Assembly: GCF_037042905.1 (NCBI RefSeq)
Contig: NC_087245.1
Location: forward strand, 9,860,001 to 9,924,000
Source of the DNA: Lytechinus pictus
Taxonomy: Eukaryota
Length of the DNA: 64,000 bases
Direction: 5' to 3'
Positions 7,074-61,482 of this stretch are shown one piece after another. Every line of letters starts with the position of its first letter. The stretch's first letter is position 1. The position numbers and the translations under genes were made by a program. The notes below the pieces were generated by a model. The model was not told the DNA's origin and did no database searches. It was given only the letters and a program-made list of their open reading frames with translations.

Positions 7074-27243
<20,170 letters not shown>

Positions 27244-38512: not shown

Positions 38513-41500
38513 AGTAGTCATATAGTGTGAAATTAATTCCTGGAGTATAAATGACCAAATAGTTAAAGAAAATATGTCGCATCTGACATTTTTAAAGGGA
38601 TAGTATGCCCTCCTGATATATATATAATTTGTATTTTTGTATAAAAGTATGATATATAAATCTGAAGAAAATAGATCACATCATTTTGTGAGAATATATA
38701 AAATTTGTTTTTGAGTGATACGTTGTGCAAATTTACCAACTGTTCGATGTTTATTTCAACCCAGACATGTACATCAATTTGGTCAAAATATAACAAGAGA
38801 TAGGGAAGTGAGGTTCACAGCATTACCTTCAAACATAATACATCTTACTATAAAAAAGAAAGACATCTTAGTGACCAAATAAATTCCTTGATTATAACAC
38901 TTCACTTCAATGACAAAAGGGGTCTTTCACATTGGTAAACTGATGTACTTCATATATTCAAATTTCTTCTGGGAAATACATTTTGTATGAGTCTTGGACA
39001 CTGTTGGAGAAACCATGAAATTAAAGTTTTAAATGCATTCTTCAAAAACACATCTTTCTGGACAACACTGACTGAGTTGAAAATGAAATGAAAAATGCAC
39101 TGCCAGGAAACAAACCAGCTTTTGACAGAATTACAATCACGATCATATACCGTACATACGACCAGCTACTGCTTTAATACTCAATGCACACATTACAAAC
39201 AGGTCTACAAATGACTTTCTTTCAATGCACATATTTAGTAATCTACCAATTTCTTTGAAATTCTCTGGTCATCGTGATCAAAACAGTGCAGAAAAGGAAA
39301 CAAGTGTGTTCAGTTGCACTTCAAGACTACAGATAGTTTCACTGTCCTCAATATATATTTCCACATTACAGTACTTGTACATTCTATCCACATCACTTTA
39401 CACGTACATGTATGCAATACACCAACTAATTATGACTAACACTGTAGTTTTGATACGACTTACCATTCACAGAAAATTAACAAAGTTTAGAAACTTCAAT
39501 AACAGAAGTTGGCATAGAATGAGTTGACTTGTACTAGTAGATGGGAAGTATTATGTAAATTGAAGATAGCATTGCTAATGTACATGTAGATCGTAATGGC
39601 ACGATGGCATTTGAAAATGTTTACTGAATGATGTATACATGTAAAATATAAAGAATATCACTGGTTTTGGAGTCTATTTGCATTAATTACTGAAGTAAAT
39701 TGAATGTACATGGAAACAGTGTAAATTACCTATTTAAAGCTAATATATTAATAAATGATGCAATATTTACTGTAGCAGGTACTATGCTAACGTTACGTTT
39801 TAAGGATTAATGAACGATGTGGTTTTGTGAAACAGCACGAAATGATGCTAAATATATGCTGGTATAGAAGGGTGATGTCTCATTTCACAGAAAAGTGCAA
39901 AGTACATGTACATCCACGTACAAGATATAAACCTTTCTTATATGCATGCACATATATTCTTTATTGATTGTGATGACTTGAACATGTTTATGATGCTGTA
40001 TTCCTGTTACAATATTAATCTTAAGTTATCAATATAATACCCCAGACACTGCAGTATACAATGATGAATGATGAATTTGAAACCGATTGAAACCAGGTGC
40101 TACTTTCAATGTATCAACTGTCATATCACACTTGGAGATTGCAACAGATGGTGTACCAACATGGTGTGTATGTATTTGTATACCAGCAGAATATATCCGT
40201 CTATGGTCATAAGATGTATGCATGTAGTTTATACTTCAAAGTACTGTGAGTTTAGTACACATCAGAGAATATTAATTTACATTTAACAATGTTTAAAGAA
40301 GTACTGACGTGAAGAGTACTATACTCTCTTGTTGATTGAGATAATGTGAGACTTTTATAACAAAATTGATATTTCCATGACATTCATGGAAACTAAATTT
40401 GTAACATGCATGCTTCAAGCACAAATGACAAATTCCATGTATTTTACACAATTCTACCAGATTTACAAATGCACAATTATGAAGCTTATCCACTAGAAGA
40501 ATCACATAGCTTTGTAATGTCTAATACATGACATTATTCCCCTTTGATCTTCACAAACATTGGAAAGGGCCTTGTTCATATATCACAAAAAGAAACAATT
40601 AACTTTTACCGCTGATTTGTAATGTTTAGTGCATGATTTCACATAGACTTACAATTACTATTCATGGTATAGTCAATTGTATCTTACATGTACAGAGCCA
40701 AGATTACTACAAGTTATCTAATAGAAATATCTCTCTAGCATCATATGTAACATACATACTGTACAAGACATGACAAACTTGATATCTAGAAGTATTTTAT
40801 AGACATAAAGTGTACAAGAATAAAGAAAAATATGGACCTCGTTGAGATTCTATCAGACATGAAAAATAATTGAATTATAACTTGATTTAAAAAACTAGAA
40901 TGTACATAAAGATTTAACTAATTTCAAACTCGTTTATAAACCTTCTCTTATGAATTACTAAGCATAAACCTTTTCCCCACAGTCCCACACATCCTTGGAA
41001 ACTTCTTTTCCTACATTTCTAACACAATTTACTTTATGTCCAATTTACATAGAATAGTCTTGTAGTGTTCTCTTCCCTTCATTTATTTCACCCAATTATA
41101 AATCAACATTATAAACAAAAATAATCTGAAAATATGTCATTTATACTTTACACTTTCAAAATTCTTAAGTTATTTTCCTTTAAATTATTAGCATAATACA
41201 TACAGTAAACGATGTTCAAGAAAAAAAATCTATCATATCTCTTAACTTATACAAAATGAAAATGATAAAGTTTAATAAATAGATGACAGATCAGGAATAA
41301 ACATTCTAAGCCTTTTTGAGCAGTACTGTATACTTTATAAGCCTTCTTATATGATTAAAAAAAAAATGTTATAGCATGTTAATAATAAGACCAATAAGTT
41401 TTTATGCTAATCTCTCTAAACATCTTAAATTTCTCCCTCTGTTCGACTCAATAATGTAATTTTTATAAGATTGAAGGTTGAGGATGAGATCAAGGAACAA

Positions 41501-41536
41501 AGCCCAAAATAAATCTTTTACGATGCACATCTAACC

Positions 41537-41626
41537 CTAGGTACCTTGATTGGAGCTTTGAACAACCACCACATAGGGACCACTAACATACCTCATCAAA
41601 CAACATGCAAATGCAATTCCAAAGAT
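41537..41626 (-). CDS. Tetraspanin alternative terminal exon 6b (IFGIAFACCLMRYVSGPYVVVVQSSNQGT*)
   Basis: ttttgtttcag acceptor; the first 12 codons encode the same residues as 6a; TAG at 41539-41537. An internal AG|gtatgt donor is also possible. Confidence 0.8.
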   Translation of the reverse strand: MFGIAFACCLMRYVSGPYVVVVQSSNQGT

Positions 41627-44600
41627 CTGAAACAAAATGATAGATATCATCATTACTTTGCTAGTATTAATTATATACACCAATAATCCCAGATCATTCT
41701 TATTTTGTATTTCTTAATGTTTATGACTTATAAAATACTATTAACATGTGAGTTTTCAAAACCAAATGAGATACAAGATTAAGTTATAAAGGTGGAGGAT
41801 GAGATGAATGATTAGCCATCTTAAACCGTCTCATATTCGCCTTTAACAACCCTCATCAAACAGCAAGCAAATGCGATTCCAAAGATCTGTATTAAAATAG
41901 AATGATAGAAACCAAAATATATATAATGATGAATCAGGAAATAAACCATGATTAGTAGTACTATTCCCGTAGTCAACAAGGACCCTTCCCGAACCACTTG
42001 TATTAGTCCATATATATTGTAATGTTCAATATGAGCCCACACTAAAGTTTTCATCACTGGCAGGTTTTTATTCATTATAGCAACAGTGCTTTTCATCTTA
42101 GCAAAACAAAGGATATCATAAATATCATCTGTGGGTAATTTGTTACATCCTTCAGAAAATGGAAGCACGGAGGGTTCTTTCACAGACAACACCTAAAATC
42201 TATTAAGAGAGATCACATAAATTTCAAGAGATTCGATTGGTCTACCTCTTATTCATATTGATATAAAATATGTTAGTGAATAATACAAGGGTCCAATAGA
42301 ATGAAGAAAAATATGACAGATTAAGTATGAAATAATACTTTTTACAAATACAAGTCTGTAAAAAATCCACATCTCAAAACGTATTGCACATACCGGTAAT
42401 CATACTGCAAGGGTAATACTTGAAACTTGGTAACACATCCCCAAAATTAGTTAAATAAATATCACATAATCAATCAAGTGTTTCATTGCCTTTGTCAATG
42501 CTAAGCTGAACATTATACAAACCAACTTTAACATTTAAATTGAACAATGATAATAGAATGGCATATTTTCAAAACAGGATATGTACCCACCTCAATGACA
42601 GCAATGGCAATGGCTACTCCAGCTATAATTCCAATATTGCCAATCAGAAGATCTTTGAGTGCGGGGTAGCAAGCCTGAAATATCAAATAACACATCAGAA
42701 AATAAATTTCCACATCAAATGGATAATCATCCAATAGATGTGTCAGAAAAAAAAAACTTTCAACACTTTCTTGGGGAAAAATACCAAATCAGCAATAATA
42801 GAAAAATAAAAGTACATCTTATCAGCATTTGAATGCTACCTTGATGATATTTCTATGATTTAGCACTACTGAACACCATTGTTTTGAAAATATTTAGCAA
42901 AATTGCATTTGGTTCATTTGCAAAACCAACACAATGGAATTGAATTTAAACAGAAAATTGATTGTATACTAAAGGTTTTCTCAATAAGATTTTTTGTTGT
43001 TCCACATCTGCCCTTTTCAATAGCCTTTATATTCAAATTTGAAATTCTCGACTGATTTTCACATTCAGGTTCTTAATGAATTCATGCACAAATTTATGAA
43101 AACCAGTTTTTTAAGCATGATAAAAAAATTGATGCCATACATGTAGGAATCAAATAACGATTTCTCTCAAAACAAAGAATTCTCACAAAGGTCCCAAGGA
43201 CCATGTTACAATTTCCTAAACCTACTCTAGACGAATTATTAAGACAATACCTAATCCATTCCATAATTAGCTACCCAGACAAAAGCCAAGGACTGAATTT
43301 CAAAATTAAATGTTACATGTAATATCTACAATGAAATAGACACGTATCACATCCACTATATTCATTATTCAACACTTGATAATCTCTTTATCTTGTTGAC
43401 AACTAAATTCTCTGAATTCCTTTTGCTTACAACAGAGACCACTAGGTTCACAAAGAAAACAGGTTAATACTAGACCATATAAAGCTTACTTCTGTGTAGA
43501 TATCAAAGTTAGTTGATCCTGGTACGTTGCAGTTTGAAACAGAAGGTGACTTGCAGCATGATTGGGGAACCATGTTGGGATTCGAAGCGTTATACCCCAA
43601 CCAGTCAGTGTAGTTATCCGATCCACAGCATTCCAACTAATACACATACAACCATCGACACAGGGGGGAAAACAAACCATTCAAATACAAAATGAAGGAG
43701 CTGAAAGGTTTTTATTAGACTTACGTAGACATGTATTTTACGTTCTGCCACAAACGGATCGCGCGACACATCACTGTTACAGCCTTCTAGCATTGTAATA
43801 CAGCATGACATAGGTACCACGTTGTAGCCAGCTGTGTCGTTAAAGCCAAACCATGAAGTATAGTTGAGTGTTCCACAGCACTCCAACTGATGGGTTAGTG
43901 AAAGCAGGTATTTGCAGAGTAGGATGGATGCGAGTATGAGGAGAGTAAATGAGATGCGAGATGTATTATGGGTTAAGAGTGAAAAGCATGAGACTATATG
44001 AGAAAATGTTAGAATTCTGGTTAATTTTCAAGGTTGCAAACCAGACCTTGACACACTATCCTGCACTATCACTGGATCATTAAAAGCTCCAGACATGCGT
44101 GTACATTCAATATTTTTTGTTTTGAAAATTTACCCTCCCTATCAATAAATGCTTTTTTTTTCTTCGCTTGTTTATTTTGTGTCTGATGCTGCATGGTCTT
44201 TCCCAAAAAGTAATTGATGAAAATGCTCAAACATGTATAAATAATGAACATACTGATAAATGTCAAGAAAATCTGTACTCTGATCCCATTCAATGTGTCA
44301 AGCTCTGTATATTCTAAATTATGCAAAATCACACAACAACAATTAGAAAATACATACAAATATTTGGTGATATAAATGAATTACGGAGAGTTTTAGAGAA
44401 AAAAGAGACATGTAGAAAGAAATATACATGATGTGGAGCAAATTTGAAATGTAATTTCTTGAATTTAGAGTAACAAGGGGCAAACTTCTGTATATTATCA
44501 TCTCTGAAGATGTGTAAAAAAATGACATGTACATGTAGTCCAGGAAAAATAACTGATTTTGGGGGTCAACCGCAAACAAATTGCAATATAATTTCTTTTA

Positions 44601-47600
44601 CCACAATGCATTTTCCTGAAGTCCCCAAAATGACATACTAAAAGTCCAGAAAAATCCCAGTAGTGGAAAGACGTCTAATTTGCATAAATCCAAAATGGCC
44701 GCCAAATTTTCAGAAAATTTGAATTTTCGTACATACATTTTGACATGAACATTTAATTGCCACAAAATTAGTGTCATATGAAAGAAAAAAAAATTCCTAT
44801 AATTTGGTACTATTTATAGGGGATAAATAGATAATTTGGCTGAGATTTTTTAGTAGAAAACTGCATTTTTGTCATTTTCCCCAAAAATTGAAAATTTTGG
44901 AAATACATTATTTTATATAAATCTAAGAAAAATGGAGCAATTACCTTGAAATGTTCCAGAAAACTTTAATAATATACTATTATCATGAGGATGCAATTCT
45001 AAATTGGTGTCATTCTTTTAAACAAATTTATAAGGTATCAAAGTTGACTATTCAAATTTCACAAATGTCGCGTTTTGTATGCATTTTCGTACACTAATAT
45101 GTATAACGTATCTAGTGTATACAGTACAGTAGTTAAAGATTGTATGCATTTATATACGCTTTTTAACCACTTAGTTAAGATTAGGCTTTTCTTTATCAGC
45201 TACATAAAAAGGGCTGGCACATTGACGTCTACCCCTCTCAGGCATGTCAGGGGGCTGTCAAAGTCACGCCCTCTGGCTATATCATGTTGTACAGTGTGTA
45301 TCAAAATTAACGCAACCACATTACGTTCCAAATTTGTGAAAAATTTGTTAGCTTTATAGTCCAGGAAAAATGACTGATTTAGGGGGTCAACCTCAAACAA
45401 ATTGCACAAGAATTTTTTTAATGCAATGCATTTCCTTGAAGTCCCCCAAATTTCATACTAAAAGTGTTTTTAAAATCCATGTAGTGGAAAGACGTCTTAT
45501 TTGCATAAATCCAAAATGGCGGCCATCGCAAGAATTTTCAGTAATGATTACAAATAATAGTGCAAACACTTGTCTGATCTAGCACTTTAAAAAAATTATG
45601 ATTAAAGCATTTACCTTTCACCAGTGTTATATCTTACCATAGGCTTCGTCTTAAAATTGGGATGCAAGTCAGATTTGGCCTCTGCTGACCTCTAGAGGTC
45701 AATGACCTTAAGGTCAACGACCTCAAAATATCAGAAAATTGATGTTTTGCATCATTAGCTCATGATAAATATAATAATAATGCAAACAAAATTATCATTC
45801 AATATTGACTTTCAAGGTAACCTGATATTCTAGAAAGAATTTTGTGTATTATAAATGTTGACCTTTGACCCTGGACCACTGGAAAAGGTCAATAACATTA
45901 ACATATTACAATATTGATACTTAGCATCAGTGGTTTATGATAAACAGGCCTCTCGTGAAAAAATTGCAATATAATTTATTTCAGCACAATGCATTTCCAT
46001 GAAGTCTCAAAAATTACATACTAAAAGTCCAAAAAAATCCATGTAGTGGAAAGACATCTAGTTTGTATAAATTCAAAATGGAGGCCATCGTGAGAATTTT
46101 TATTTTTACAAATAATAGTAAAAACACTGGTCTGATCATAGCACTTAAAAAAATAATGATAAAAGCATTTAACTTTCACCAGTGTTATATCTTACCATAG
46201 GCTTCATTTAAAAATTCCAATGCAATTCAGATTTGACCTCTCCTGACCTCTTGAGGACAATGACCTTAAGGCCAATGACTTAAAAGTATTGATGTTTTGC
46301 ATCCAGAGTTCTTGATTAGCATCATGTTATATCAACTTGTGTTTGAAATTTGAGGATCTCTAAAGAAATTTGACCTTAAAATGTAAAAATATTGGTACTC
46401 GGCATCACTGGTTGATATGATAATGTTTTGAGGTAATTGACCTTTCACTTTCCTCAGCAGTCAAATGTTGAGATCTGCAAACTTTACTCAAATAATCAGT
46501 TAAAAATACCAAAACCATATCATCTGTATAGTTGTAAGTTTGTAACGCTAGGGGCACGTTTCATAAAGAGTAACTTTGCCATTATGGCAACTACCATGGC
46601 ATTAGGGTTCAGCAGCCAATCAAAATCAAGGTTACCATGGTAGTTGTCATAATGACAACGTTACAACCTTTGTAACTCTTTATGAAACGGGTCCCATGTC
46701 TGTTTTGGCTAGTACATTCCTGACTGAGGTTAGAGCATTGGGAGGTTTTGAAATGATATCTGAAATGCCTCAATTATTTTTTTGCAGTTATCATCTATGT
46801 ACACTACCCGAGAGACTTGCAAGTTTTCCCATCTAGATTGTAACCTGGTGTAGTTGCTCTTTAGAAGGGAGATGCAGCTTACCACGATGCTGGTTGGCAC
46901 TGCACTTCTCTTCCCGTAACTTGCATAATGGTGACTCTGTCAGAGGTTGGGCAGAATTAAAAATATGTTTCCTAGATTTTAGGCTTTTTCAACTAGTTTG
47001 GCATCATAGATTTGATGGACGCTATGTCTTCGCTGAGAGCTCTGTGGTATAGCTACTGATCTGCGTATATCAGATGGGAAATACCTGACAGGACATACAG
47101 ACTCTTCACATTCTTTGGCTTTAGATAGCCTGTGATAGTCCCACAAGTGTTGTCTAGAGGTAGACGTGTCCAAGACAGCACATGCATACTCTGTAGCAGA
47201 GTATTGGTGGAGGAGTTTGTCAGTTCCGGAGAAGGTTATTATGGATCCTCACTTTCCACCTTCACTCTTAATGTGACTGATAAAGGTTGACACCAAGATA
47301 TATTGCATGGTCGCAGTGCTGGAATGGAATTCAAACCATAGGTTTTTTTTAGTTTCCTCATAGCATGATGATTGTGGGGATGAAACAAGCTAACCTTGGT
47401 CTTTAGGTTTGAAGACTGGACTCAAGCAAGAACACTACCCTGAGAGAGTCGGTTCTTTTGAATTCTTTACCTGCTGGTCTTCCTGTTGAGCTCCATAAAG
47501 AGATGTCTGTTTTATAGTAGAAGTTTGATAAGTTTGGTCAGATGATTATCATCAATGATTTGTATAGTTGTACGAGTAGACCACAGTATCAGATGCAGCT

Positions 47601-50600
47601 GCTAATTCAACAAAAATTTTCTACACCCGTTAGTTAGTTACCGGATTAAGTCGGAAGTCCTCAGTGAACTGAGTCTGGTTGAGAACCTAGCTTGTATATT
47701 ATTTCCAAAGTTAAAAACCAGCCTGGTTAGGAATATGATATGTTGTTCTATAATGGGACCATTTATTTTTTAGATGAGATGCTCAAGTAGCTTGTAGAGA
47801 TATCAGAAAAGGGCGATTGGCCTGTAGCTTCTAGGCACATTTGGATCTTTCCAAGGTTTGAGGAATTACTTTAGCCTTCCTCAAAATTTCTGGGAGATGG
47901 GACTGTGTAGCACATTGTTAAACAGGCTGCCATTCTTAAGTATGGAAGCTTAAGATGTTCATATAATCATCTCGTCATGTCTACATCTCTTAAGGAAAAA
48001 AGATAAGATGACGAAATCTCGGATCTCGTCTTGTCTACATCCTGCGGGAGAGATGATCATGTGACAAGATCTTGGATCTCGTCATGTATACATCCTGTAA
48101 GAGAGATGATCGATGACAAGATCTGGGATCTCGTCATGTCTACAACTCTTAGGGAAAAGGATAAGATGACAATATCTTAGATCTGATCATCTCTCCCACA
48201 GGATGTAAAAATTGCGAGATCCAAGATCTTGCCATCTGATCATCTCTCACACAGGATGTAGACATGACGAGATCTAAGATATTGTCATCTTATCCTTTTC
48301 CGTATGTAGACATGACGAGATGATTAAATGAACATCTGGGTGGCAGATCAAAATGTTTCATTTACTCAGAGTGGTGTCACCGAAGCGTGCTGCCTTTCCC
48401 TTCTTTGTTCCTTCAGTTTCAATATCCAGGTGAAGTCTCCATTGGACTGGTCCCACGGAAGATATCCACTTTGGTGTATCTTGTACTGGGTTGTTCTATT
48501 CAGCAGAAGCTGGATAGTAAACTAGTTAAGATCAATATTCTAAATAAATTGATCTTTGAAAGTTTCAGGGTTAAAGGTCACAACTTATAATACTCGCAAA
48601 TTTTCTCATGTATCAAGGGACCTTATAAGTTAACAAATTATTATGATGCAAAACATAAATTTTTATGATATTCCGACGTCAATAATCCTTTAGGTCATTG
48701 CCTCTAGAGTTCAGCACAGGTCAATTCTAAATTGCATCCGATTTTTAAAATGAAACCTATGATAAAATTTAACAGTGATGAAAGTTTAACGCTTTAATCA
48801 TATTCTTAGTGTTATCATCAGACCAGTGTTTGTACTACTACGATTAATCATTTTGGATTTATGCAAATTAGATGTCTTTCCACTACATGGATTTTCTGGA
48901 CTTTTAGTATGTCATTTTGGTGACTTCATGGAAATGCATAGTGCTCAAATTAATTGTATTGCAACGTTTACACTAGAAGCCTGTTCATAAATCAGAGATG
49001 CTACGTGTCAATATTCTAAAATGTTAAGGTCATTGACCTTTTCCAGCTCTCCAAGGTCAAAGGTCAAGACTTATAACCCACCAAATTCTTTATAAAATAT
49101 CAAGATACCTTGAAAGTCAATATTGAATCATTTTGTTTTCATTATAACCATATTTATTATGTACTAATGATGCAAAACATCAATTTTCTGATATTTAGAG
49201 GTCATTGACCTCTAGAGGTCAACGGAGGTCAAATTTGACTTGCATCTTGCTTTCAAAATGAAGTCTATGGTAAGATATAACACTGGTGAAAGTTTCATGC
49301 TTTTATCATAATTTTTGAAAGTGCTATGATCAGAACAATGTTTGTACTACTATCAATAATCATCAAAAATTCTTACGGTAGCCGCCATTTTGGATTTATG
49401 CAAATTAGACATCTTTCCACTAAATGGATTTTTCTGGACTTTTAGTATGTCATTTTGGGGACTTCATGGAAATGCATTGCGTTGAAAAAAATTCTATTGC
49501 AATTTGTTTGCGGTCAAACCTTATTTTTCCTGGACTAATGTACACTAGTGCAACATTACAAATATACAACTAGCATGTATGGCTGAAACTTCAATGATAG
49601 TTATACAGAAATTAATCTCAGGCATCAACATCCACACAAATAATGTACGTACAGTATGGGCAGTACGAAACGTATGTACATGCACGTACATGTACATATA
49701 TAATTCAGAATGCTATATCATTTGGCAAATTGATTTAATGAAAAGAAAGAATACATTATCCAAAAGTTCTGTGAAAATCAATTACAAAAGCATGAAAAGT
49801 CTATTTGTTATTAGAATTATCAGATTTTCTACATGTACACACTGCCCATTTTTTTGTTTCTGAAGCACCCTTTGTACGTTGCATGTTCAGGCAAAATTTG
49901 GTGTAGAAACGATCGTTCTAAGGAAAGATATTGAAGAAAATATGCTGTTAAATTCCATTGACGCCTATGTACAAGTAAATGACAAACACACATTACTCAT
50001 TTACAACAAATTATACTTTTGTAACTTGCTTCCTTTTGCCAAAGTATGGCAGTACTGTACACATATCTTTCAAAGTGCAGCATGTCTAACTCTAACCGAA
50101 AAATGATCATGGGATATGTTTATATTGCTCTCTTCCAAAAGAGTCAAATAGCTTCTTAAATGTCAAGTCCACCCAAGGAAAATGTTGATTTTAATCAATA
50201 GAGAGAAATCAAAAGAGCATAACACTGAAAATTTCATCATAATTCAATGTAAAATAAGTTATGACATTTTAAAGTTTCATTTATTTTTTAACAAAACCAT
50301 TAGATGCACAACTCGGTGATATTCAAATGAGAGAGTCACTGGTGTTCCTCACTATTTCTTTTACTCTTGATTATTTGCATTGAATAATATTTCTATTTTT
50401 ACAGATTAGACATAAAGATCAACTTGACTGAGCCAAAAAATGTTAAAACAATGATTATTCCACATTTCCAGGGAGGTATAAAACTTTTGTTTCACATGAC
50501 AATGAGAACAAAATTACATAGACTGTATTTCATATAATACAATACAAAAGAAATACCGGTAGTGAGCAGGTGATGTCATCAGTCCCCTCATTTTCATACT

Positions 50601-53600
50601 GACCAGGATGTGAATATACTGTACAATGTACATGTAACTGTTTTGTGAATTTTCAGTGTTATACCCGTTTAATTTGTCTATTTTTATTCAAAATAATTTT
50701 TTGTTAAGGTGGAGTAATCCTCTTATATAACATTAACATGCAGAAAATCTGAAAATTGTAATATAGAACAAATAGTTCATTATAGCCTGGTTGCCATCTT
50801 GAAAAAAAGTGCCAATCGGTGATGATCACTTTTACTACATGTACATTACACTCTAGAAATTCAAATGAGACTTACAAAATCATAACTTTCTCATTTAAAC
50901 CAATGTTGATGGAAGAACCTTTTTTTTTCTTTGCTTCTCTCTATCCCCTAATTTCATGCCCATTTGATTTATAGTGAGTTAACATGTACATAAATATTTT
51001 GTTAAAATGCATTAACAATACATGCAGTACAATGGAGCGCAGTGCATACAATTGCAGGGTGATTGTATGAACACTATTAGCAGACAGCAAAAGTACAAGG
51101 CGACTTTGAATAGGAAATATTGCACAACAATGGGGGGGGTTGTATGGTTTTGGATATTGGATAATAAGATAATTAGTTCAAATTGCCATTCCCCATTTCA
51201 GACACAACTCTGATCAGATTCCTTACATGTACCACCACCAAAAAAATATATATAAGTAATGGAACAGATGCTGAAAATATAGTAATTACAAATCACATGT
51301 ACTGAATGAAAGCCTATAATGGGATTTTAAAAAATCAACAGATAATCAGGTATAAGTACATGTATGCATGCATTCATAAAGTACATGTACAGTACATGAT
51401 GTGCAGTGTAAAACATATATATATTTTTTCTCTCTCTCTCTCTTTTGGGGGGAGGGGGGGGGGCTAAAATTAGTACAAATAAGTGAAAAAGCACAACAGC
51501 TTATCAAAGTGCATTACATGTATATGAAAAGGGGATAAAGGATGGCAGAAAATTAGCATGCATGGTATTAAGGTGACAGAAAAGACAGTTAGCATGATTT
51601 AATAGAGAACTTTGAGTAAAATTCGAATAAAATGGCACTTGATTAAATGAAATCATACACAATACAGGTGATAATTAGCTATTTAGAGTTTTGGGGATAG
51701 TTAAAATGGCCTATTTTATATGAATAGGTGTACTACATGTAGCTGATTGAAAGTAAAAATGATTTTAAAATAATTTTCCTCTGCTGATGTCCTGGGGCAA
51801 TGTAAACCAAGATACGAAAAACAAATTATGAACAGGAACAGAATTAGAATAAAGAAATGATGTACAATGATACCAAATATTCCAGCTGTAACAGAGTGTG
51901 TACATGTACCTCCTATTGCACTTAACTAGGAATGGCATCTGAAATCATAATTTACAGTGTATACAAAATAAAATATCCAATAAAATGTCAAAAAGGAAAA
52001 TGTTCAGTAACTTTTGGAGGCATGATTAACCAAATTGAGAGAGCAATAAAATAAATATACAAATTAAAATTAAATTGAAAAATAAGGAGAAAATCAAGTA
52101 AAATATATACGTATAGAGATACTGTATAAATCAAGAAAACGAATGGAGGATAAAAATACATGTAGAAAATTCAAGTTCATATCCAGAACTGTGTCACATG
52201 CATGTACATGTACATGTAGTCTATTAAATGTCTGTACTGTATTAAATACATACTGTACATGAAGGTCCATACAGTCACTGAATCCATGATATGATAGAGT
52301 ACATGCATACATGTAATATGGAATTCATCTAGACTTTATGTATGGTATGTTTTGAACAAAGAAGAACTGGGTTGGTTTGTTGTCACAGAACCTCTGAGCA
52401 CTTTGGTAAATAAACTCATTTCTATGTGTGACTCTTCTATTTAGATATAGCATATTGCAAGCCTCTAAAGCAAGGGCACAATGTAGAGATCAGGGAGTGG
52501 TGACAATCACAATATATGAATAGAAAATACAAAAATACAACTTGTCAAAGACCGTATTTGAGGACCGATGAGCATCTGAATTTCTTAATACAAAACATAA
52601 ACATTTGGCTAAATGAAAAATGCTCTGCTTGCATTTGTGACTAGCACAGTGAATTAATTTTTAATAAAGCACTTACTGTATGCCCATGACAGGCAAATCA
52701 ATATAGCAAGGTTTATAGCTAAATTTAATCCCACACAACTACAATTTCTCTTTTTCCCTTTTTATTGATTTATTTGCATCAATTGCTTTGATATCTGACT
52801 CATTCACTTTGGCGTTAATAAAGTATAGACATGGATAGTATCAATTAGAGTTGGTATGGCGAGTAGGGTGAATTGAGAAAAGACATGTTTTTTTCTGAAG
52901 CAATCTCATAAATTATGTCATAAAATATTATGAATATATTTTCATCTATCAATAATTTAAATATACATTTCCGAAAAGAAGGTACACCTTGATAAAAGGA
53001 CCTTGTTAGGGTCTAGTAGAATCCTTTCAATTCCTCATATCCTGGCTTCACTCCTGACCTTTTCTACCAAGGTCATATTGTGGTCTTGTATATATCTGGG
53101 TAGATACCAAACTCTTCTATAATGGAACAAATTCATATCAGAAGTGAGAGGAAAACTTTGGACTGAGAAATGATCTGTGATGACATCCATTCATTTGTTA
53201 AATGGGCTTTTAGACTTCAATAGAGGCTTAGAAATCTACATCATCTCAATTACCGAAGGATAAGATCATTTTTAAAGTGCAAGTAAACAATGGTATCGGG
53301 TGAAAATATCAAAGAAATGGGCCTTCCTAGTTCCCACATCATGCACTAGAAAAAAAAACATGCACAGGTTTCCTTTAAGTGTCACAGACTGGTCAAATGA
53401 GTTCAGTAGTAAATATCACTAGGTCGGGTACTTACGTTTTTCTGCATGTTATCAAAGAGATCTTTCGTTGATTCACTTTCGTTATAAGTCTGTTGGAGTT
53501 CAGACATGTTGTCGTCGATCAGGTTATCAATGTCATCACGTTTAACATAGCCAGAGATACCAGCCGCCAGTTCCAAGATCAGGAGAAGAACCATGATGAA

Positions 53601-56600
53601 TGCAAACTACAGTGTGAAATAATAAAAATAACAGTGTATCAAATTACAGCCATCATACACACGCAAGCTATCACAGTACATGTGACTAGCTGGGATCGGC
53701 TGTCATATGATATCCATACACGTACAGAATTATTGGCCAATAGATGTGTAAATCTAGGATTTTTTTTTCCTGAAAGACACAGGTACCCAAATAAATATGG
53801 ATGATTCCATGGTCAGTCACATTATGCTACTGCATGTCTTTTCTATTACTTGATGCTGTCAGTTTTACAGGGGTGAGATTTCCTGTCAAGTTTATTATTT
53901 ATAAGTTGTAAAATTGTGCAGAGACTCATGCTAATATTTTTTTTCATTCAGTTGGCATAATTCAATAACGGAAGGACGCAAACAAGTAAATATTTCATTA
54001 ATAATCGCTAAAACTATAATAAAGGTCGAATTGAGTAATTTTTCAGTAAAGCAAGAAATCATATTTGCTATGTTTTTAAACAACCAGGGGGAGTTGCATA
54101 GAGAGTTTAACAGCAAGTCAAAAATATCAAGCACAAGTCCAGAAAGCATGCCTTTGATTGCTTAAAAATCATGTTGCTTGTGATTTTTAGAGTTGCGTTT
54201 GGTAAAATTCTTTCTGCAATGGGCTACAGGACCTTCACGCATTATACTGTACATGAGGGTAATGATGAAAACATGATTACAGTATTGAAGTCCAAGAGAA
54301 GAAATTTGATAAAATCAGGATAGTTTCCTTTGAAACAAATTTTATTAGAAGCACCAATTCGAAAAAAAAAACAATGTAATTATAACAATCAAACAACATG
54401 TGTACTAACCGTTGCCAGCATGCAGTAGTTCTCCTTGACTGCTCCGCAACATCCAAAGAATCCAGTAAGGAATATGAAGACACCAATACAGATGAGTGCT
54501 ATAGGGATAGCTGTTCCTGTATTACCGGTGAAGTCTACATACTCACTGTACAAGGTCAATGTCAAACTTCCTCCGATTATGATACCAAGACCGAAGATCT
54601 GCAAAAAAAAAGTATGAGAAGAATGTTATGGTATTAAAGGGAAGTTACATGTATAATCACAACCTTCCTATTTTCACTGCAGTCACTTTCAGGATAATGC
54701 AACGATTATTATGATTAAAATTTAAAATGAGGGAAAATATACATGTACATGTAGACAGCGAGTTGCATGAAACATCTTCAGTATTTGATGCTTTATAAAA
54801 AGGGATGACAATAAAACAAAACAAAACATGGCTGACAGGCACTAAATTTCTCCATATTTTAGGTTAAGGTCATTTTTCCGCAGGCACAAGTACAGGAAGT
54901 CAAGAAGACAAGAAAATTCTGGAATAAAGGGCAAAAATGACCAATGAAGTACATGTCTGTACATGTAGGCAAGGTCAATCAAAAGGATACTTGTGGCCTT
55001 GAATGTATCTAAGCCATGATGCTGAAAATAATCAATTAGCCAAATTGGAAGAAAGTGCGGCACTACACATGCAATATACAGTACATGTCAAAAATGAGGA
55101 TAGTGAAAACAAATAGTATTCACATGAGGATGATTACGACAATGATAGGCATTTCATTATATACTGCCATCTACAGTACATGTATCAAGAAATATTCTAT
55201 TCCAATGAGCACAGGAAAAATGGACAAAAATAAAAGTTTGGATGAGTGTCATAGTGCCAAAAATTGATAACATAAAATATAATACTCCAGTTTACATTTA
55301 ATGATTTGATATTTCTATTTTAATAGTAAATTTATTCCAAAGAAAAGGTGCTGGGGAAAAGGAAGCTAATTCAGGCTACTCATGTAGGGGTCTTTAGAAG
55401 CTCTTGTGATGATCTCAGGCTACGAGCTGGTACATATATATACAAACTAACTACACATTGTCGGGTTCAAGAAGGCTGAACTCTGTATCACCAGACTTCA
55501 AAGGGTTCATGAATATCACATGACATTGGCAGTTGGTACAAACACAGGCTTTTAACAAAAACACATGTACATATTCTACAGTATTGTATGTGAAAATCCT
55601 CTTATTATCCTTGGCAAAGATAATCTGAATGTTCTGGGTCATGCTGCATGCATGTTTATACAATTTTAAATCTATTTGCAAAAACAACAATGAAGGATTC
55701 CTTCTCTCTTTTTTTCCTTCCATTGTTTGTATTTTCAGGAAATCAATAAAGTCTGTTATCCGTTATCCATGAACAAACAACATTATCAGATGGTCAGCAG
55801 ACATCAGATTGACCTTAAACAATGGTCAAGGCCTTTGAATACATGTAATGCATACAGTAAAATAACATGAGATTCCTTAAAATATTTATCAATAAAGATA
55901 CCTATTTTCTGTGACTTCTAATGAGCACCTTTACTGCTTTTTTTAGAAATAGGTTATAATAATTATTATACATATTCAATTATACAGCAATCTTTATCAC
56001 ATACATTGATATCACTTGTACATTTTAGCTTAATAATGTCATTGAAAAATCACTGACAAAAAGCTTCATGAGATGCTCCTCTGACTGGGCAAAATATCTT
56101 CAGGTTTGATGAACAGTATACATTCGTTGTAGCAAATATGTTCATGTAGCAAACATAATTAAAAAGTAACCTTCCCAAGTCATGCTTGAATACTTGCATG
56201 CATTGTAGCACAATAAGCAGTCATGGATGGTGTACTTTTTGCTAATTACATTGCAAATTACATGTATGAATATGGGTATGGGTGTGTTGATGTGATAGCA
56301 GCCTGTTATGCACTTGAGGTCTCATATTTTATGCTAGTCACCGAACCAAACCTAAGTACCAGCACTTAAATTTAGCAGCCATATCATTTTATAGGGATTC
56401 GTCCTTGATTCCAACTGCAAAACATCTCTCATGATCATATCCATGCTACTTTACAGTACTGGTACATGTATCGATGTACATGACCTGCATAAAATCATGC
56501 GTAGTGGCTCTAAATGCAATGCTTTCTGCATGCGTTAATGCATGTACACCAATTATAAAGGCCATGAAATTTATAAACTGTCAATGGATAGGTGGACTTG

Positions 56601-59600
56601 CGCAAAATGGTATGGGAAATGTAGGTACTGTTGTACTGCATCCAACACCCAAGATCCAACATGTATGCACTTCACATTTTCTTCAATGTTTCGACATCCT
56701 TCTTCCCAGGAATTTGACAATTTAATATAAACCACAGTAAATGCAATCATTAAAAAATATATTCTTGGCCAGTAATCCTTGGTTCCCCTGATCATTAATA
56801 CATTGTAAACAGATCATATTCATATTACACACTATTGTATACAAGATGTACAGTATGTTACAAATGAGGCCGCCATCAATTCAAGCCTAACCGCTCACGA
56901 TGGTGGTCTCCTGCGTTCATTTATTACATTATATATATATGTTTACATTTATAAAAGATTAATTTATACTCACACTCTTATTTGTATTTATCATGTAATA
57001 TGACTACATTGTTTATATTGTGAATTATTTTGTATATTGTAATTGTAAATATTTTTGTATTGTGTTTTTGAACGCAGAAATAAATGCAAGCAAACAAACA
57101 AACAAATCAAAATGGAATCCAGCCCAAATTGCAAGATTTGTCCCAAAAGCAAATTACTCAGTGGACATGCTATCCATAATTGGAAAAGCATGATTGGAAA
57201 GCATCCCATTTTTTTTAATTCCCAAGTCAGGAAATTTAAGAAAATGTGGCATTGATCACTGTCTTGTAATGATAAACAAGTGGAATGCCTCTGGCCGTCT
57301 CACCTGCATCACGCGATTCAATATAGCAGCAGTGCTGATTTTGAAAACTACTATAACTCGCACAAGATGTTCAGTGATACTTGGTTACTCTTATTTCCAC
57401 GTTTTATGAACTAGACCAATACACTTATAGAGATATGATGGCAATTCAACAAATACCCCCAACGTGGCCAAAGTTCTTTGACCTTGATCATGTGACCTGA
57501 AACTCGCACAGGATGTTCAGTGATACTTGATTACTATTATGTCCAAGTTTTATGAACTAGACCAACACACTTTCAAATTTATGGCTGTAATTCAACAAAT
57601 ACCCCAATTTGGCCAAAGTTCATTGACCCTAAATGACCTTTGACCTTGATCATGTGACCTGAAACTTGCACAGGATGTTCAGTAATACTTGATTACTATT
57701 ATGTCCAAGTTTCATGAATCAGATCCATAAACTTTCAAAGTTATGATGGTAATTCAACAGATACCCCCAATTCGGCCAAAGTTCATTGACCCTAAATGAC
57801 CTTTGACCTTGGTCATGTGACGTGAAACTCATGCAGGATGTTCAGTGATACTTGATTAACCTTATGTATAAGTTTCATGAACTAGGTCCATATATTTTCT
57901 AAGTTATGATGACATTTCAAAAACTTAACCTTAGGTTAAGATTTTGATGTTGATTCCCCCAACATGGTCTAAGTTCATTGACCCTAAATGACCTTTGACC
58001 TTGGTCATGTGACATGAAACTCAGGCAGGATGTTCAGTAATACTTGATTAACCTTATGGCCAAGTTTCATGAACTAGGTCCATATACTTTCTAAGTTATG
58101 CTGTCATTTCAAAAACTTAACCTCAGGTTAAGATTTGGTGTTGACGCCGCCGCCGCCGTCGCCGCCGCCGCCGCCGTCGGAAAAGCGGCGCCTATAGTCT
58201 CACTCTGCTATGCAGGTGAGACAAAAAGTAATTTGGTGATTAAATAAATTCTCTATAATTATGATTCTATGATTAAGCACCTATTTTACTCTATGCATAT
58301 TTAATGATCATACATGTATATCACAATATGAGCAAATGCAGCGAGGAGTAATTACTTATAAAGAAATGTGCATCTTCATCAGCCAATGTACAATCTTTTA
58401 AAATGCATGTAAACAATGGTAGGGTGAAAATGTCAAATAATTGGGGTCTTCCTACATCATATCAATCTTTTTTTTATCACCTACAATTTTCATACATGTA
58501 GCTTGATAGAATAATATGCTTTCAAGCAAGTCCAAGAACTCACATATGTTATACATGGGACATTTCAGAGGCTGCATGCAAAATAGTGTTAAAGCTGTCT
58601 TTATCTTTGGTATTAAAGGGTTAGTAATGTGAATCTTTTTTTTTGTACCTCCAAACAAGGAACTTATCCAGACATATAATTCATCACACGTGTCAAACTG
58701 AACATCACAATATATTTAACATTTTCTCTTCTTCAATTCTTTGTTTGTAATTATTCTATTTTCTATTTCTCTTACAAATGGTATAGGGGAAAGTGGGGTA
58801 AATAAGGCCACCTGTTAGTTTTTAGCTCGCGGCTCGAGAATGGTAGGGTCAAATGTATAACTGTTTTTTGTATAGTATTTGAGAGGTCCTTAGCACAGAT
58901 TTTGAGCATTCAGTGTAGTAAGTCTCACAGCCCAGTGCACATGGCCAGGAGCAAAAACCCAGGAGCAAATTACGCATGCGCGGAAATTGCGTGATGATAG
59001 GACTAGATCTATAGCCCTATCACAAATTTTGCCAAATATTCATAAATTTCCGCGCATGCGTTATTTGCGTTTGCAATGTTTTAGAATCGGCAGTGAATAA
59101 ATACGTGTGAGGAACCCGATACTGGCTCTAAATCACCAATTTTTAGACTAACCGTAGGATTGATATGGATTGAAATTAGAATGAAAAGTAGGAAGATTAG
59201 TGTTATATTCTTTTTAAAATCGTGTTGGTGCACGAGTTTTATATTTTTCCCCCCATAAAATCCCACCTTTGTCACTCGGAGTACCAGAGTTCACGACCTT
59301 GATGTTCGCGTAGGTGTAGCGTAGATCTAGTGTAGCGGTAGTGAAGTGGAGCCTACACGAACATCACTTGAGGTAGGATAAACGGTATGATGGGGGGCCT
59401 AAAGCTACGCACTTTGTTTACAAACGATAACTATGCCAATTTTAATATTCTAACAAATCATCTTTCACAAATTTGTGTTAAATATTGTAAAGATTCATAA
59501 CCAAAAAGAAAATATCACAAAACTCACTAATACGAAAATCCCACCGTGTTTTCCGAACACCTCTTGATTTCGCCGCCCGATATACTATAGAAGGGGTCCT

Positions 59601-61482
59601 AAAGCTACGCACTCAATTTATCATGCAAAGAAAAAGTATTTCCTGTGCCTAAACTTCTAAATAATGTTCATATTCTTATAGGAAAATATGGAATCAAAGT
59701 GAATATAACTCCAAAATTCCAAACAGTTGCTGGTTTTCTCTGTAGCTGTATTTAGCGATTTATTGGCTTTTATAAAATAGGTGTATTATTTCAAGCATCG
59801 CGATTGGCCAATACGCGTCACATGACATCCAACTTTTTGGGTGCACTGCACTACAATACAGTGCGCAACGAAAATTGACATTGCACGCTCAAGCAAACCA
59901 ATGCGGTAGAAGTCCCGGGAGAAGTCCAACAATTAGATATGAGAAGTCAATTTTCACCAACTTGCCCCACTGCCTCCTTAAACTTTTTGAAGCATGAATG
60001 AAGCAGACAAAATTAGAAGATGGACCTGGAAGCTCGACTGCTAATTCAGCATTCTTCCAGTATTTGCGGTAAGGTACATGTAAGGTAAGACTGAACTGTA
60101 ACTTTTTAAGAATTTGTTTCTGTGTTGCTATTTTATAAAACAAGTAATGCACTTGCTCTGTCGTGCGTAAAAGTAAATGCAGAGAAAGCTCGGTTTCTTC
60201 AGATGGTGCACACTTGGCACTCGCCGCCAGCGGCTCGTGCACAGTGCGGCACCTATCTAAAGAAACCCCGCATACCTTTCGAGGTATGATTTGAAGGACT
60301 GTGTGGAATTGAGGTTTTTTATTCCTGGTGGGAGATTGTTCCAGTCTTTTTATTGGTAAAAAAAAAACTCCTCAAAAACAGACGGCTGCAAGCTGTCTAC
60401 GACTGGTACTGGTAGTGGTATACCCAGTGGTACTTTAGTCATGGTTGTGTGTCCGGACGGGTTGTGTGTACGGACGGGTTGGGTGTCCGGACACATGATT
60501 TTTACTCTCAATTTTAAAAAGTTTACAAGCAATGTCTTTAATTCTTTTTAGCACAGAATCTAAGAAAATATTATAAAGAACAAATATTGATGGTGAAAAA
60601 AAACTATTCAACCTATATTTTTGGTTTATTCCTGAGATAAAAACAAGGCTTCATTTCTGTTAACTTTAACGTTAGTGTTACGTGTCCGGACACCCAACCC
60701 CCCACCCTAGCCAGGCGGCTTCTAGAGAGTAAAAATCATTTACTAACGTAAGGTCACTCTCATGAAGCCAGGGCTTCCGTCATATACTTTTGTGTGTACC
60801 ACCAAAAAACCTGAAACTTTCGCCCCCGAGATTTCTACTTTCTTTCTAAAAGATCTAGCCCTAAATCATGTACATGGGATAAAACTTCATTTCCGACATT
60901 TCTACGCTCTCGTTGTTATTTTTGAACAAGAATTCATCAAAAAAATGAGAGAAATATTGTGTAAAGACGGAAGAGACTTGCCCGATGTTTACGCCGCCAT
61001 CTTGTTTTCTATTGTTCTTCCCCAACGTTACCCGACGCACGCGTCTGTAACGTTAGCGAAGAACAATAGGAAACAAGATGGCGGCGTAAACATCGGGCAA
61101 GTCTCTTCCGTCTTTACACAATATTTCTCTCATTTTTTTGATGAATTCTTGTTCAAAAATAACAACGAGAGCGTAGAAATGTCGGAAATGAAGTTTTATC
61201 CCATGTACATGATTTAGGGCTAGATCTTTTAGAAAGAAAGTAGAAATCTCGGGGGCGAAAGTTTCAGGTTTTTTGGTGGTACACACAAAAGTATATGACG
61301 GAAGCCCTGGCTTCATGAGAGTGACCTTACGTTAGTAAATGATTTTTACTCTCTAGAACTTAGAAGCCGCCTGGCTACCCCACCCTACGTTACTTATAAA
61401 CGTTAGATCTAACGTTACTTACGAAAAATATGAAGTTAAAGAAGAACATCAAATATTTGATGCATTTTGCCGATCCTTCCAT
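41537..61482 (-). CDS. Tetraspanin, 6-Cys EC2, CD63/TSPAN7-like; 6 coding exon positions with duplicated alternatives at positions 4 and 6
   Basis: Exons 61482-61423, 54598-54410, 53606-53436, [43886-43725 or 43636-43490], 42674-42591 and [41886-41821 or 41626-41537], all phase 0 with GT-AG. Four TM segments, KCIKYLMFFFNFIF, GFFGCCGAVKEN, CCG, PxSCC and a C-terminal YxxPhi. Exact orthologue not assignable by eye. Confidence 0.95.
41821..41886 (-). CDS. Tetraspanin terminal exon 6a (IFGIAFACCLMRVVKGEYETV*)
   Basis: tacag acceptor, TAA stop, terminal YxxPhi motif. Confidence 0.93.
   Translation of the reverse strand: MFGIAFACCLMRVVKGEYETV
42591..42674 (-). CDS. Tetraspanin exon 5 (ACYPALKDLLIGNIGIIAGVAIAIAVIE)
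   Basis: tttcag acceptor, GAG|gtgggt donor; last EC2 Cys and start of TM4. Confidence 0.95.
43490..43636 (-). CDS. Tetraspanin exon 4b, variable EC2 (LECCGSDNYTDWLG...VPQSCCKSPSVSNCN...DIYTE)
   Basis: tattag acceptor, GAA|gtaagc donor, 147 nt open, 5 Cys. Confidence 0.92.
43725..43886 (-). CDS. Tetraspanin exon 4a, variable EC2 (LECCGTLNYTSWFG...VPMSCCITMLEGCN...KIHVY)
   Basis: catcag acceptor, TAC|gtaagt donor, 162 nt open, 5 Cys. Confidence 0.9.
44536..49537. mobile_element. 5-kb composite non-autonomous DNA transposon, Academ-like (TAG..CTA ends, 3-bp TSD ATG)
   Basis: TAGTCCAGGAAAAATAA ... TTATTTTTCCTGGACTA with ATG on both sides; a second left end at 45357; about 1-kb diverged inverted arms (45357-46430 vs 48560-49537); no intact ORF. 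Confidence 0.75.
47964..48326. mobile_element. Foldback-like MITE built from about 57-bp internal repeats, nested in the 5-kb element
   Basis: TAATCATCTCGTCATGTCTACAT ... ATGTAGACATGACGAGATGATTA, with repeated GATCTCGTCATGTCTACA units in both orientations. Confidence 0.8.
53436..53606 (-). CDS. Tetraspanin exon 3 (FAFIMVLLLILELAAGISGY...LFDNMQKN), TM3 and constant EC2 helices
   Basis: tgtag acceptor, AAC|gtaagt donor. Confidence 0.96.
54410..54598 (-). CDS. Tetraspanin exon 2 (IFGLGIIIGG...GFFGCCGAVKENYCMLAT)
   Basis: ttttgcag acceptor, ACG|gttagt donor. Confidence 0.96.
57275..58227 (-). mobile_element. DINE-1/HINE-type (Helentron-associated) element with an internal tandem array
   Basis: Subterminal IR GTCTCACCTGCAT (57297-57309) / ATGCAGGTGAGAC (58210-58222); five 147-192-bp units starting CARGATGTTCAGT; (GCC)n microsatellite; terminal stem-loop; A/T-run flanks. 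Confidence 0.75.
60708..61377. mobile_element. 670-bp near-perfect palindromic element with TAG..CTA ends and an 8-bp TSD (hAT-like MITE)
   Basis: About 315-bp arms, apparently identical except a 7-nt insertion near the right end and a few central mismatches; CCCCACCC at 60700-60707 and 61378-61385. Confidence 0.92.
61423..61482 (-). CDS. Tetraspanin exon 1 (MEGSAKCIKYLMFFFNFIFF)
   Basis: caaaATGG start context, TTC|gtaagt donor, canonical tetraspanin N-terminus and TM1 start. Confidence 0.93.

Follow-up and report, generated by a model that had tools for sequence, protein, structure and literature searches.

Among animals, twin exons of which only one enters each transcript are common. For exons 2 and 3 of alpha-tropomyosin, the choice is governed by steric hindrance between a donor and a distant branch point. 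In tetraspanins, the variable subdomain of the large extracellular loop (EC2) is held to set the partners of the protein, mostly on the basis of paralogue comparisons and engineered chimaeras. A human survey of mutually exclusive exons (Hatje et al. 2017, PMC5740500) treats a donor-to-branch-point distance of < 50 bp as potential steric interference, and tetraspanin, TSPAN, and CD63 have 0 mentions in its main text. Splice variants have also been described for human tetraspanins (Hochheimer et al. 2019, PMC6773723); these lack pieces of the loop or membrane segments or have an altered topology, and the word "mutually" is absent from the text of that paper. Phase-0 introns 4 and 5 are conserved in CD63-like tetraspanin genes (Garcia-Espana et al. 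2009, PMC2650405), and alternative splicing has been suggested as a possible reason for their retention; the passages of that paper relevant here describe no duplicated exon.

We analyzed a 64,000-nt stretch of the Lytechinus pictus genome (NC_087245.1, positions 9,860,001 to 9,924,000; hereafter the window), which carries a tetraspanin gene on its minus strand (RefSeq name: CD63 antigen-like). In this sea urchin gene, the exon for the variable EC2 subdomain has very probably been duplicated in tandem, giving a mutually exclusive pair of exons, 4a and 4b. The coding part of exon 1 (61423..61482, minus strand, as are all exons below) encodes MEGSAKCIKYLMFFFNFIFF, the start of TM1, and ends at a GT donor; exon 2 (54410..54598, 189 nt), flanked by AG and GT in phase 0, encodes TM1, the small loop, and TM2; and exon 3 (53436..53606, 171 nt) encodes TM3 and the constant EC2 helices A and B. 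Two alternative exons for the variable EC2 subdomain follow, 4a (43725..43886; 162 nt, 54 aa), the minor form in the RNA sampled, and 4b (43490..43636; 147 nt, 49 aa), the major form, separated by an intron of 88 nt (43637..43724). Exon 5 (42591..42674, 84 nt) supplies EC2 with its sixth Cys and with helix E and also covers the beginning of TM4. The last coding exon is present as 6a (coding part 41821..41886), which encodes the end of TM4 and the major tail, RVVKGEYETV before the stop codon, and as its duplicate 6b (coding part 41537..41626), which lies within the 3' UTR of the 6a-type mRNA and encodes the minor tail, ending in RYVSGPYVVVVQSSNQGT and a stop codon. All introns of the gene are phase 0, and the window exons, when joined, gave the RefSeq proteins X1-X4 letter for letter (4/4). 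Elsewhere in the window, a weak tblastn match at 11121-11219 (E about 0.1) was stop-rich in the one frame translated and was dropped.

Exon 4a translates to LECCGTLNYTSWFGFNDTAGYNVVPMSCCITMLEGCNSDVSRDPFVAERKIHVY and exon 4b to LECCGSDNYTDWLGYNASNPNMVPQSCCKSPSVSNCNVPGSTNFDIYTE, each between AG and GT splice sites. Both are phase 0, encode 5 Cys and the variable part of the large extracellular loop from CCG to the fifth Cys, and carry two N-glycosylation sequons at matching positions (NYT, and NDT or NAS). With 44% protein identity between them, and with each matching positions 141-172 of the Pfam tetraspanin profile (E 6.8e-4 for 4a and 2.5e-6 for 4b), their likeness is, judged on sequence, homology rather than chance. 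The two exons are neighboring, homologous, and equal in phase, with intact splice sites on both. A first-pass annotation of the same DNA had described two intact phase-0 exons with canonical splice sites, and the window sequence bears this out, including all four of the splice junction coordinates that it named. It had also counted 11 EC2 Cys for joint inclusion, and recomputation gave the same number in an in-frame protein of 292 aa with 18 Cys in total; skipping of both exons is likewise in frame. Its statement that the upstream exons and exon 5 are single copy is incomplete: exon 5 is single copy, but the tandem duplicate of the last coding exon had been missed.

All four isoforms matched the Pfam tetraspanin profile (PF00335) at 178.9-199 bits, above the cut-off of 32.1. 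AlphaFold models of both forms (mean pLDDT 89.5 with 4b and 88.1 with 4a) contained four membrane helices (2-38, 50-75, 78-104, and 191/196-237/241) and two EC2 helices from exon 3 (106-122 and 128-141), with the alternative exon lying between helix 128-141 and the helix running into TM4, so that the swapped part forms the tip of EC2 between constant helices in the models. The CCG and SCC motifs and the fifth Cys are encoded by the alternative exon and the sixth Cys by exon 5. The profile score for the whole protein, the four membrane helices, and the CCG loop with paired Cys identify a tetraspanin. As a candidate member of the CD63-like group, expected to show six EC2 Cys, a C-terminal Tyr-x-x-hydrophobic tail, and a CD63-type intron pattern, the protein has six EC2 Cys and, in the 6a forms, the tail ..EYETV, and its introns are phase 0, as in the family. 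By sequence, however, TSPAN7 was the best solved relative (E 5.5e-36), with the CD63 loop behind it (5e-13). The best Foldseek matches were TSPAN15, CD9, CD53, and CD81 (E 1e-7 to 1e-11), with the CD63 loop matched at TM 0.81 and 0.83. With one of 4a and 4b placed after exon 3 and before exon 5 in each mRNA, the swap leaves the membrane helices (all four) and helices A, B, and E of EC2 as they are; it exchanges the disulfide-bonded tip, which runs from CCG to the fifth Cys. From the structure models and knowledge of the family, we infer that one gene would present two extracellular surfaces, and the two tips may serve as two partner-binding surfaces.

RefSeq contains four L. pictus isoforms, X1-X4, combining either 4a (X1 and X3) or 4b (X2 and X4) with either 6a or 6b. 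The L. variegatus isoforms X1-X4 each have 4a or 4b and never both, and the pair of isoforms is also annotated in S. purpuratus, Diadema antillarum, and D. setosum, so that all 5 echinoid species represented by RefSeq entries in the matches have 4a-type and 4b-type isoforms of one gene. Of 13 RefSeq isoforms inspected for this orthologous gene in the 5 species, which as XP models are automatic predictions, none (0/13) included both exons. D. setosum X3 (191 aa) skips both 4a and 4b, and the one-of-two choice may not be strict everywhere. A UniParc model, P0015 (298 aa), has 4a and 4b in tandem; it is nameless, with an aberrant N-terminus, as is typical of an ab initio model. When P0015 was used as query against 1.84 billion representatives, 150 matches were listed and 148 were screened, of which 3 had at least 2 EC2-type CCG motifs; two of these three (482-493 aa) look like fused tandem genes, and the third, P0192 (290 aa), in which two CCG-to-TM4 units stand in tandem, is a lead only.

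Usage was examined in three L. pictus raw-read RNA runs from one study (X19-X21) and in a run of contigs from a second organism (X6). Reads were aligned to 40800-44000 only, giving fine depth bins and avoiding the repeats of intron 3; because of this restriction, joints with exon 3 appear as loose ends only. At 43636, the 4b acceptor, 140, 165, and 71 loose ends were found in the three runs, with a consensus equal to the end of exon 3 (agreement 0.98-1.0), and 4b was joined to exon 5 by 105, 163, and 86 reads (354 in total), with the loose ends at the exon 5 acceptor matching the end of 4b. For 4a, the joint to exon 5 with 4b skipped (43725>42674) was found in 2, 0, and 0 reads, that is, in 2 of 356 donor joints, both from X19, and the joint from exon 3 (53436>43886) was not seen in the RNA sampled. 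Depth in the L. pictus runs was 86-190 over 4b and 0-1.4 over 4a. No joint from 4a to 4b (43725>43636) rose above the listing threshold in the three runs, an absence that, at a 4a depth of at most 1.4, says almost nothing about strict exclusivity in RNA that contains 4a. The second organism (X6) yielded a contig joining exon 3, 4b, and exon 5 at a depth of 1295 and another joining 4a to exon 5 at a depth of 31.7; the latter continues into the intron upstream of 4a and not into exon 3, and may derive from partly spliced RNA.

Usage in these samples looks mutually exclusive and is strongly skewed to 4b, which is the default form there, with 4a as a rare one. The path from exon 3 through 4b to exon 5, the joining of 4a to exon 5 with 4b skipped, and the lack of a RefSeq isoform with both exons all fit one exon per mRNA, at a 4a depth that is very low. 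The mutual exclusivity put forward in the first-pass annotation is supported by the RefSeq models and by the raw RNA reads. Exon 4a may be used in a cell type or stage outside these samples.

Double inclusion could not be prevented by a frame shift, since both exon lengths are divisible by three. We applied the steric criterion of Hatje et al. (2017, PMC5740500), a donor-to-branch-point distance of less than about 50 nt, with the branch point here a motif match only, in one species. The 88-nt intron contains just two YTNAY motifs, with the branch A 10 and 32 nt from the 4a donor and a pyrimidine tract following them, and the motif is absent within 55 nt of the 4b acceptor. An intron of this length, with its best branch-point motif 32 nt from the 4a donor, would block joint inclusion of the two exons by steric hindrance, and the odds that this is what prevents it are, on these motifs, about even.

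Exclusion may instead be real without being steric, arising from competition of the strong acceptor of 4b with a weak one at 4a under tissue-specific splicing factors, or from competing RNA pairings, and we give this a chance just short of even. A length of 88 nt is not clearly below the size of a spliceable intron, there is almost no pyrimidine tract between the CTAAC motif of the 4a acceptor and its AG, as fits a regulated weak exon, and the strong skew to 4b fits a scheme of default plus activator. The positions of the YTNAY motifs speak for the steric account and against this one. Docking or selector RNA pairing was searched for with RNAduplex, a crude and weak test, between three intronic stretches: 500 nt ahead of 4a, the whole 88-nt intron, and the intron from 4b to exon 5. 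The energies lay within those of mononucleotide shuffles (z -0.52, +1.21, and -0.67).

In a tree of 19 exon-4 segments, 4a-type exons formed one clade (support 82/85) and 4b-type exons another (82/95), the latter with two S. purpuratus paralogues within it. Because the tree groups 4a with 4a and 4b with 4b, the duplication is older than the Diadema/Echinacea split. Both exons date from before the separation of Diadema and Lytechinus and have stayed intact: disruption of one of them in relatives, which the first-pass annotation had named as a point that would tell against it, was not found, with intact 4a and 4b types in 5/5 echinoid species. Between L. pictus and S. purpuratus, 35 of 54 residues are identical in 4a and 31 of 49 in 4b, and 123/140 and 40/49 in the constant parts; on these comparisons, 4a and 4b evolve fast and at like rates with every Cys retained. 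The single exon of a 251-aa relative, P0019, has ..DVSRNPEVAGQ.. in common with 4a; over its whole length, though, it is no nearer to 4a (45-46% identical) than to 4b (42-46%), and it has no firm place in the tree.

It is very improbable that 4a is a pseudo-exon, a duplicate in decay or out of use, whose rare joints to exon 5 are splicing noise so that only the 4b form matters. The low read depth of 4a, its 2 donor joints, and the run of the 4a contig of the second organism into the upstream intron speak for this account, but an unused exon would not have stayed intact over such divergence. Exon 4a has retained its frame, splice sites, 5/5 Cys, and both sequons, its orthologues form a clade of their own, its rate of divergence equals that of 4b, and 3 of 4 differences from the second organism, among the differences listed, are synonymous. 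Also very improbable is that 4a and 4b are independent cassette exons with both-in or both-out forms as regular products, for although double inclusion and double skip preserve the frame and P0015 has both exons and D. setosum X3 neither, the loose ends at the 4b acceptor are exon 3, those at the exon 5 acceptor match 4b, no joint from 4a to 4b was listed, no inspected RefSeq isoform has both, and P0015 looks like an ab initio model.

A mutually exclusive pair thus remains the preferred reading of 4a and 4b, and the gene has a further tandem pair at its 3' end. Exons 6a and 6b are 77% identical over 75 nt of DNA and are a second duplication, younger than that of 4a and 4b and seen only in Lytechinus. 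Joints from exon 5 to 6a numbered 89, 172, and 70 in the three L. pictus raw-read runs and those to 6b numbered 0, 6, and 10, and RNA depth was unbroken from 41886 down through 41537. The choice between 6a and 6b gives either the ..EYETV C-terminal tail or a longer tail, and crossed with the choice between 4a and 4b it yields a 2 x 2 set of isoforms.

More tentatively, and with rather more room for doubt than for belief, the old switch may show two partner-binding tips, with 4a reserved for a special cell type or stage (gametes or immune cells) and for a different partner, and Lytechinus may cross this switch with one of sorting tails. If so, sea urchins would offer a natural domain-swap experiment on the role of the variable EC2 subdomain, and one Lytechinus gene would supply surface and trafficking variants in a 2 x 2 matrix. 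Two versions of the subdomain have been kept in one gene across a deep sea urchin split on an identical membrane core; with the core shared, any partner or phenotype specific to one isoform could be traced straight to the variable EC2 subdomain. Because L. pictus serves as a laboratory species, knock-outs of single isoforms and expression maps are feasible in it.

In the searchable literature, outside which lie subscription journals and supplements, no description of a tetraspanin with a duplicated EC2 exon that can be switched came to light. The first-pass annotation knew of no described case, which is true of that literature, but the isoforms were already in RefSeq. As a type of splicing the case is ordinary, belonging to the known class of mutually exclusive exons that arise by tandem exon duplication, with its isoforms already in public gene models. 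Like the mutually exclusive duplicated exons treated by Hatje et al. (2017, PMC5740500), 4a and 4b are adjacent homologues of like length and equal phase that appear one per mRNA and cover one structural element. The arrangement also resembles exons 2 and 3 of alpha-tropomyosin in having an upstream donor near the putative branch point of the downstream exon with a long pyrimidine tract after it, unlike which the branch point in the urchin gene is a motif match only. Phase-0 introns flank the alternative urchin exon at the variable loop domain, as in the CD63-like genes of Garcia-Espana et al. (2009, PMC2650405). The human tetraspanin splicing described by Hochheimer et al. (2019, PMC6773723) likewise alters either the C-terminus or the large extracellular loop; unlike those human variants, the urchin gene replaces a complete folded variable subdomain with a homologous one.

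The CD63 antigen-like tetraspanin gene was located on the minus strand of the window, which has a G+C content of ~34% and a gene density that is not prokaryote-like. Its coding exons were identified, all on the minus strand, as exon 1 (coding part, 61482-61423), exon 2 (54598-54410), exon 3 (53606-53436), the alternative exons 4a (43886-43725) and 4b (43636-43490), exon 5 (42674-42591), and the last coding exons 6a (41886-41821) and 6b (41626-41537). All internal exons were bounded by AG and GT and were a multiple of three in length. For all 4 exon combinations assembled from the window, the protein was identical to the RefSeq isoform concerned (X1 to X4). When exon 4a was used as a protein query, a single match with 100% identity was obtained, a 251-aa protein named "CD63 antigen-like isoform X1 [Lytechinus pictus]", and exon 4b likewise led to isoform X2 (246 aa). 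Among the 90%-identity clusters, L. pictus X1 and X3 were 4a forms and X2 and X4 were 4b forms, and the same 4 isoforms were found in L. variegatus.

Exons 4a and 4b, which encode the variable part of the large extracellular loop (EC2) from the CCG motif to the fifth Cys, had 44% protein identity. At the DNA level they resembled each other mainly in the initial ~85 nt, and the introns on either side were dissimilar. Either exon alone matched the Pfam tetraspanin profile at positions 141-172, and N-glycosylation sequons were present at positions 8 and 16 in both. The coordinates, phases, motifs, and Cys counts that the first-pass annotation had reported for this pair were all right on recheck against the window sequence.

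We analyzed exon choice in 3 raw-read RNA runs (X19, X20, and X21; same species label, one study) and in a contig run from a second organism (X6), all aligned to 40800-44000. The first mate lay on the plus strand in all reads, which fits a stranded library of a minus-strand gene. Depth on 4b was 86-131, 106-190, and 46-91 in X19, X20, and X21, respectively, and depth on 4a was 0.5-1.0, 0, and 0.9-1.4. Joints from 4b to exon 5 numbered 105, 163, and 86, and those from 4a to exon 5 numbered 2, 0, and 0. At the 4b acceptor, 140, 165, and 71 loose ends were found, and because their consensus, once reverse-complemented, corresponds to the end of exon 3 (agreement 0.98-1.0), transcripts reach 4b from exon 3 rather than from 4a. 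One X6 contig with a depth of 1295 joined exon 5, 4b, and exon 3. A second (1100 nt, depth 31.7) had exon 5 spliced straight to 4a, followed by sequence of the intron that precedes 4a. Splicing from the 4a donor with 4b skipped therefore occurs, but this contig may derive from partly spliced RNA. The proposal that 4a and 4b are mutually exclusive was supported by the path through exons 3, 4b, and 5 and by the rare joints from 4a to exon 5; over 40800-44000, no 4a-to-4b joint attained the 3 reads needed for listing. Counting against it, 4a contributed only 2 of the 356 donor joints in X19 to X21, and a joint from exon 3 to 4a was not seen in the RNA aligned to 40800-44000.

The first-pass annotation recognized the 4a/4b duplication and overlooked a second one in the last coding exon (41537-41886, minus strand), where 6a and 6b are 77% identical over 75 nt. 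Exon 6a ends ..RVVKGEYETV, resembling the ..EYEVV/..EYETV terminus of nearly all relatives; the longer tail of 6b, ..RYVSGPYVVVVQSSNQGT, was found in the 2 Lytechinus species only among the isoforms and relatives aligned. Joints from exon 5 to 6b numbered 0, 6, and 10 in X19, X20, and X21 versus 89, 172, and 70 to 6a, and since RNA depth runs unbroken across both copies, the coding part of 6b lies within the 3' UTR of the major (6a) mRNA. Further downstream, depth fell to 8-18 at 41121-41334 and was back up to 76-158 at 40907-41120, with AATAAA at 41087 and ATTAAA at 41276 (40800-41340, minus strand); the 40907-41120 signal may reflect the 3' end of this mRNA, another transcript farther downstream, or a repeat. 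All L. pictus RNA reads differed from the window at 3' UTR positions including 40958, 41466, 41473, 41651, and 41660, and a synonymous 42627 A>G was carried by 136/136, 233/233, and 106/106 reads in the 3 runs. These mismatches are reference-individual alleles or assembly errors.

Repeats were also present in the introns. A near-perfect inverted repeat in intron 1 (60720-61358; 312-nt arms, 99% complementary, 15 nt apart) is located shortly downstream of coding exon 1 and probably represents an insertion of the foldback or MITE-like type. The 9.5-kb intron 3 contained several copies of one short repeated element, direct and inverted, at 44536-46289 and 48892-49514, and tandem arrays were found at 47969-48294 (period 53) and 57476-58144 (periods 163 and 192).

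Exclusion could be enforced by steric hindrance, in which a putative branch point too near the 4a donor would block 4a-4b joining. The 4a-4b intron is 88 nt long and has only two YTNAY motifs, which would put the branch A 10 or 32 nt downstream of the 4a donor; a long pyrimidine-rich tract follows the second motif, and the 55 nt preceding the 4b acceptor contain no YTNAY motif. A donor-branch point distance <50 bp is taken as potential steric interference by Hatje et al. 2017 (PMC5740500). Judged from motif positions in one species, hindrance across this intron has about even odds. A regulated, weak 4a acceptor could act instead, and that acceptor has its CTAAC motif ~9 nt before the AG and hardly any pyrimidine tract in the gap. 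A crude search of the introns around 4a and 4b for competing RNA pairings found nothing, and a frame shift is unable to enforce exclusion because the double-inclusion and double-skip forms both remain in frame.

With full-length X1 as the query, 133 proteins were identified at E <= 1e-10 (120 of the 133 listed); among the matches listed, we looked up clusters and aligned 21 proteins. S. purpuratus had X1 (XP_030829577.1, 4a type) and X2 (XP_030829578.1, 4b type), Diadema antillarum had X1 (XP_071488805.1) and X2 (XP_071488806.1), and D. setosum had X1, X2, and X3 (XP_072181104.1 to XP_072181106.1), with X3 lacking both alternative exons. In these 3 species, isoforms of one species were identical except in exon 4. 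Across genera, 4a orthologues were 54-63% and 4b orthologues 56-63% identical, versus 44-54% between 4a and 4b. Maximum-likelihood analysis of 19 exon-4 segments (one identical row, mc298_2, omitted) recovered a 4a clade (support 82/85) and a 4b clade (support 82/95, including two S. purpuratus paralogues), a separation with moderate support for segments of only ~50 columns; deeper nodes had no resolution, and four rows had long branches. Diadema (Diadematoida) and Lytechinus (Echinacea) both belong to Euechinoidea, and as the clades span both genera, the duplication is older than the Diadematoida/Echinacea split of roughly 200-270 Myr ago. When L. pictus was compared with S. purpuratus, 35/54 residues of 4a and 31/49 of 4b were identical, with 123/140 in the N-terminal and 40/49 in the C-terminal constant parts. 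Both exons thus diverge faster than the rest of the protein, at similar rates and with every Cys kept, the pattern expected of two functional variable binding regions and not of a dead copy. Two related database proteins, P0019 and P0024 (brittle star Amphiura protein), had two additional Cys in the equivalent exon, and a 4a-like ..DVSRNPEVAGQ.. stretch in P0019 prompts one to ask if 4a-type exons arose before echinoids. Another, P0192 (a predicted tetraspanin of 290 aa from another organism), had two tandem units, each spanning a CCG motif to the beginning of TM4; the prediction may have read through a duplicated exon pair, and it hints at similar duplications elsewhere.

AlphaFold2 models of X4 (4b and 6a) and X3 (4a and 6a), built on alignments of 107 and 105 relatives, had mean pLDDT of 89.5 and 88.1. 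In both, exon 3 formed helices 106-122 and 128-141, the alternative exon formed a Cys-rich, mostly non-helical tip (residues 141-189 or 141-194), and the long helix becoming TM4 started in exon 5; the 4a tip had an additional short helix (184-187). Foldseek against the PDB ranked TSPAN15, CD9, CD53, and CD81 first (E 1e-7 to 1e-11), and the CD63 loop crystal structure matched the models at TM 0.81 and 0.83; the best solved relative by sequence was TSPAN7. In tetraspanins, partner specificity is established to reside in the subdomain that extends from CCG to the last Cys, and we infer that the 4a and 4b tips bind different partners.

The 4a/4b finding is real and, in kind, ordinary, being mutually exclusive exons via tandem duplication, and the isoforms are already in automatic RefSeq models of five species. 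It is useful as an old, clean, and naturally occurring exchange of the variable subdomain of a tetraspanin, in an animal that is experimentally accessible. Full-text literature searches found no description of a tetraspanin whose EC2 exon is duplicated and switchable, and tetraspanins are unmentioned in the main text of a survey of human mutually exclusive exons (PMC5740500). Garcia-Espana et al. 2009 (PMC2650405) noted phase-0 introns flanking the variable loop and speculated on splicing; unlike 4a/4b, the passages found there describe no exon duplication. A survey of human tetraspanin splicing (PMC6773723), from which the word "mutually" is absent, reports variants that are deletions and topology changes, whereas the urchin gene swaps one exon, 4a or 4b, for the other.
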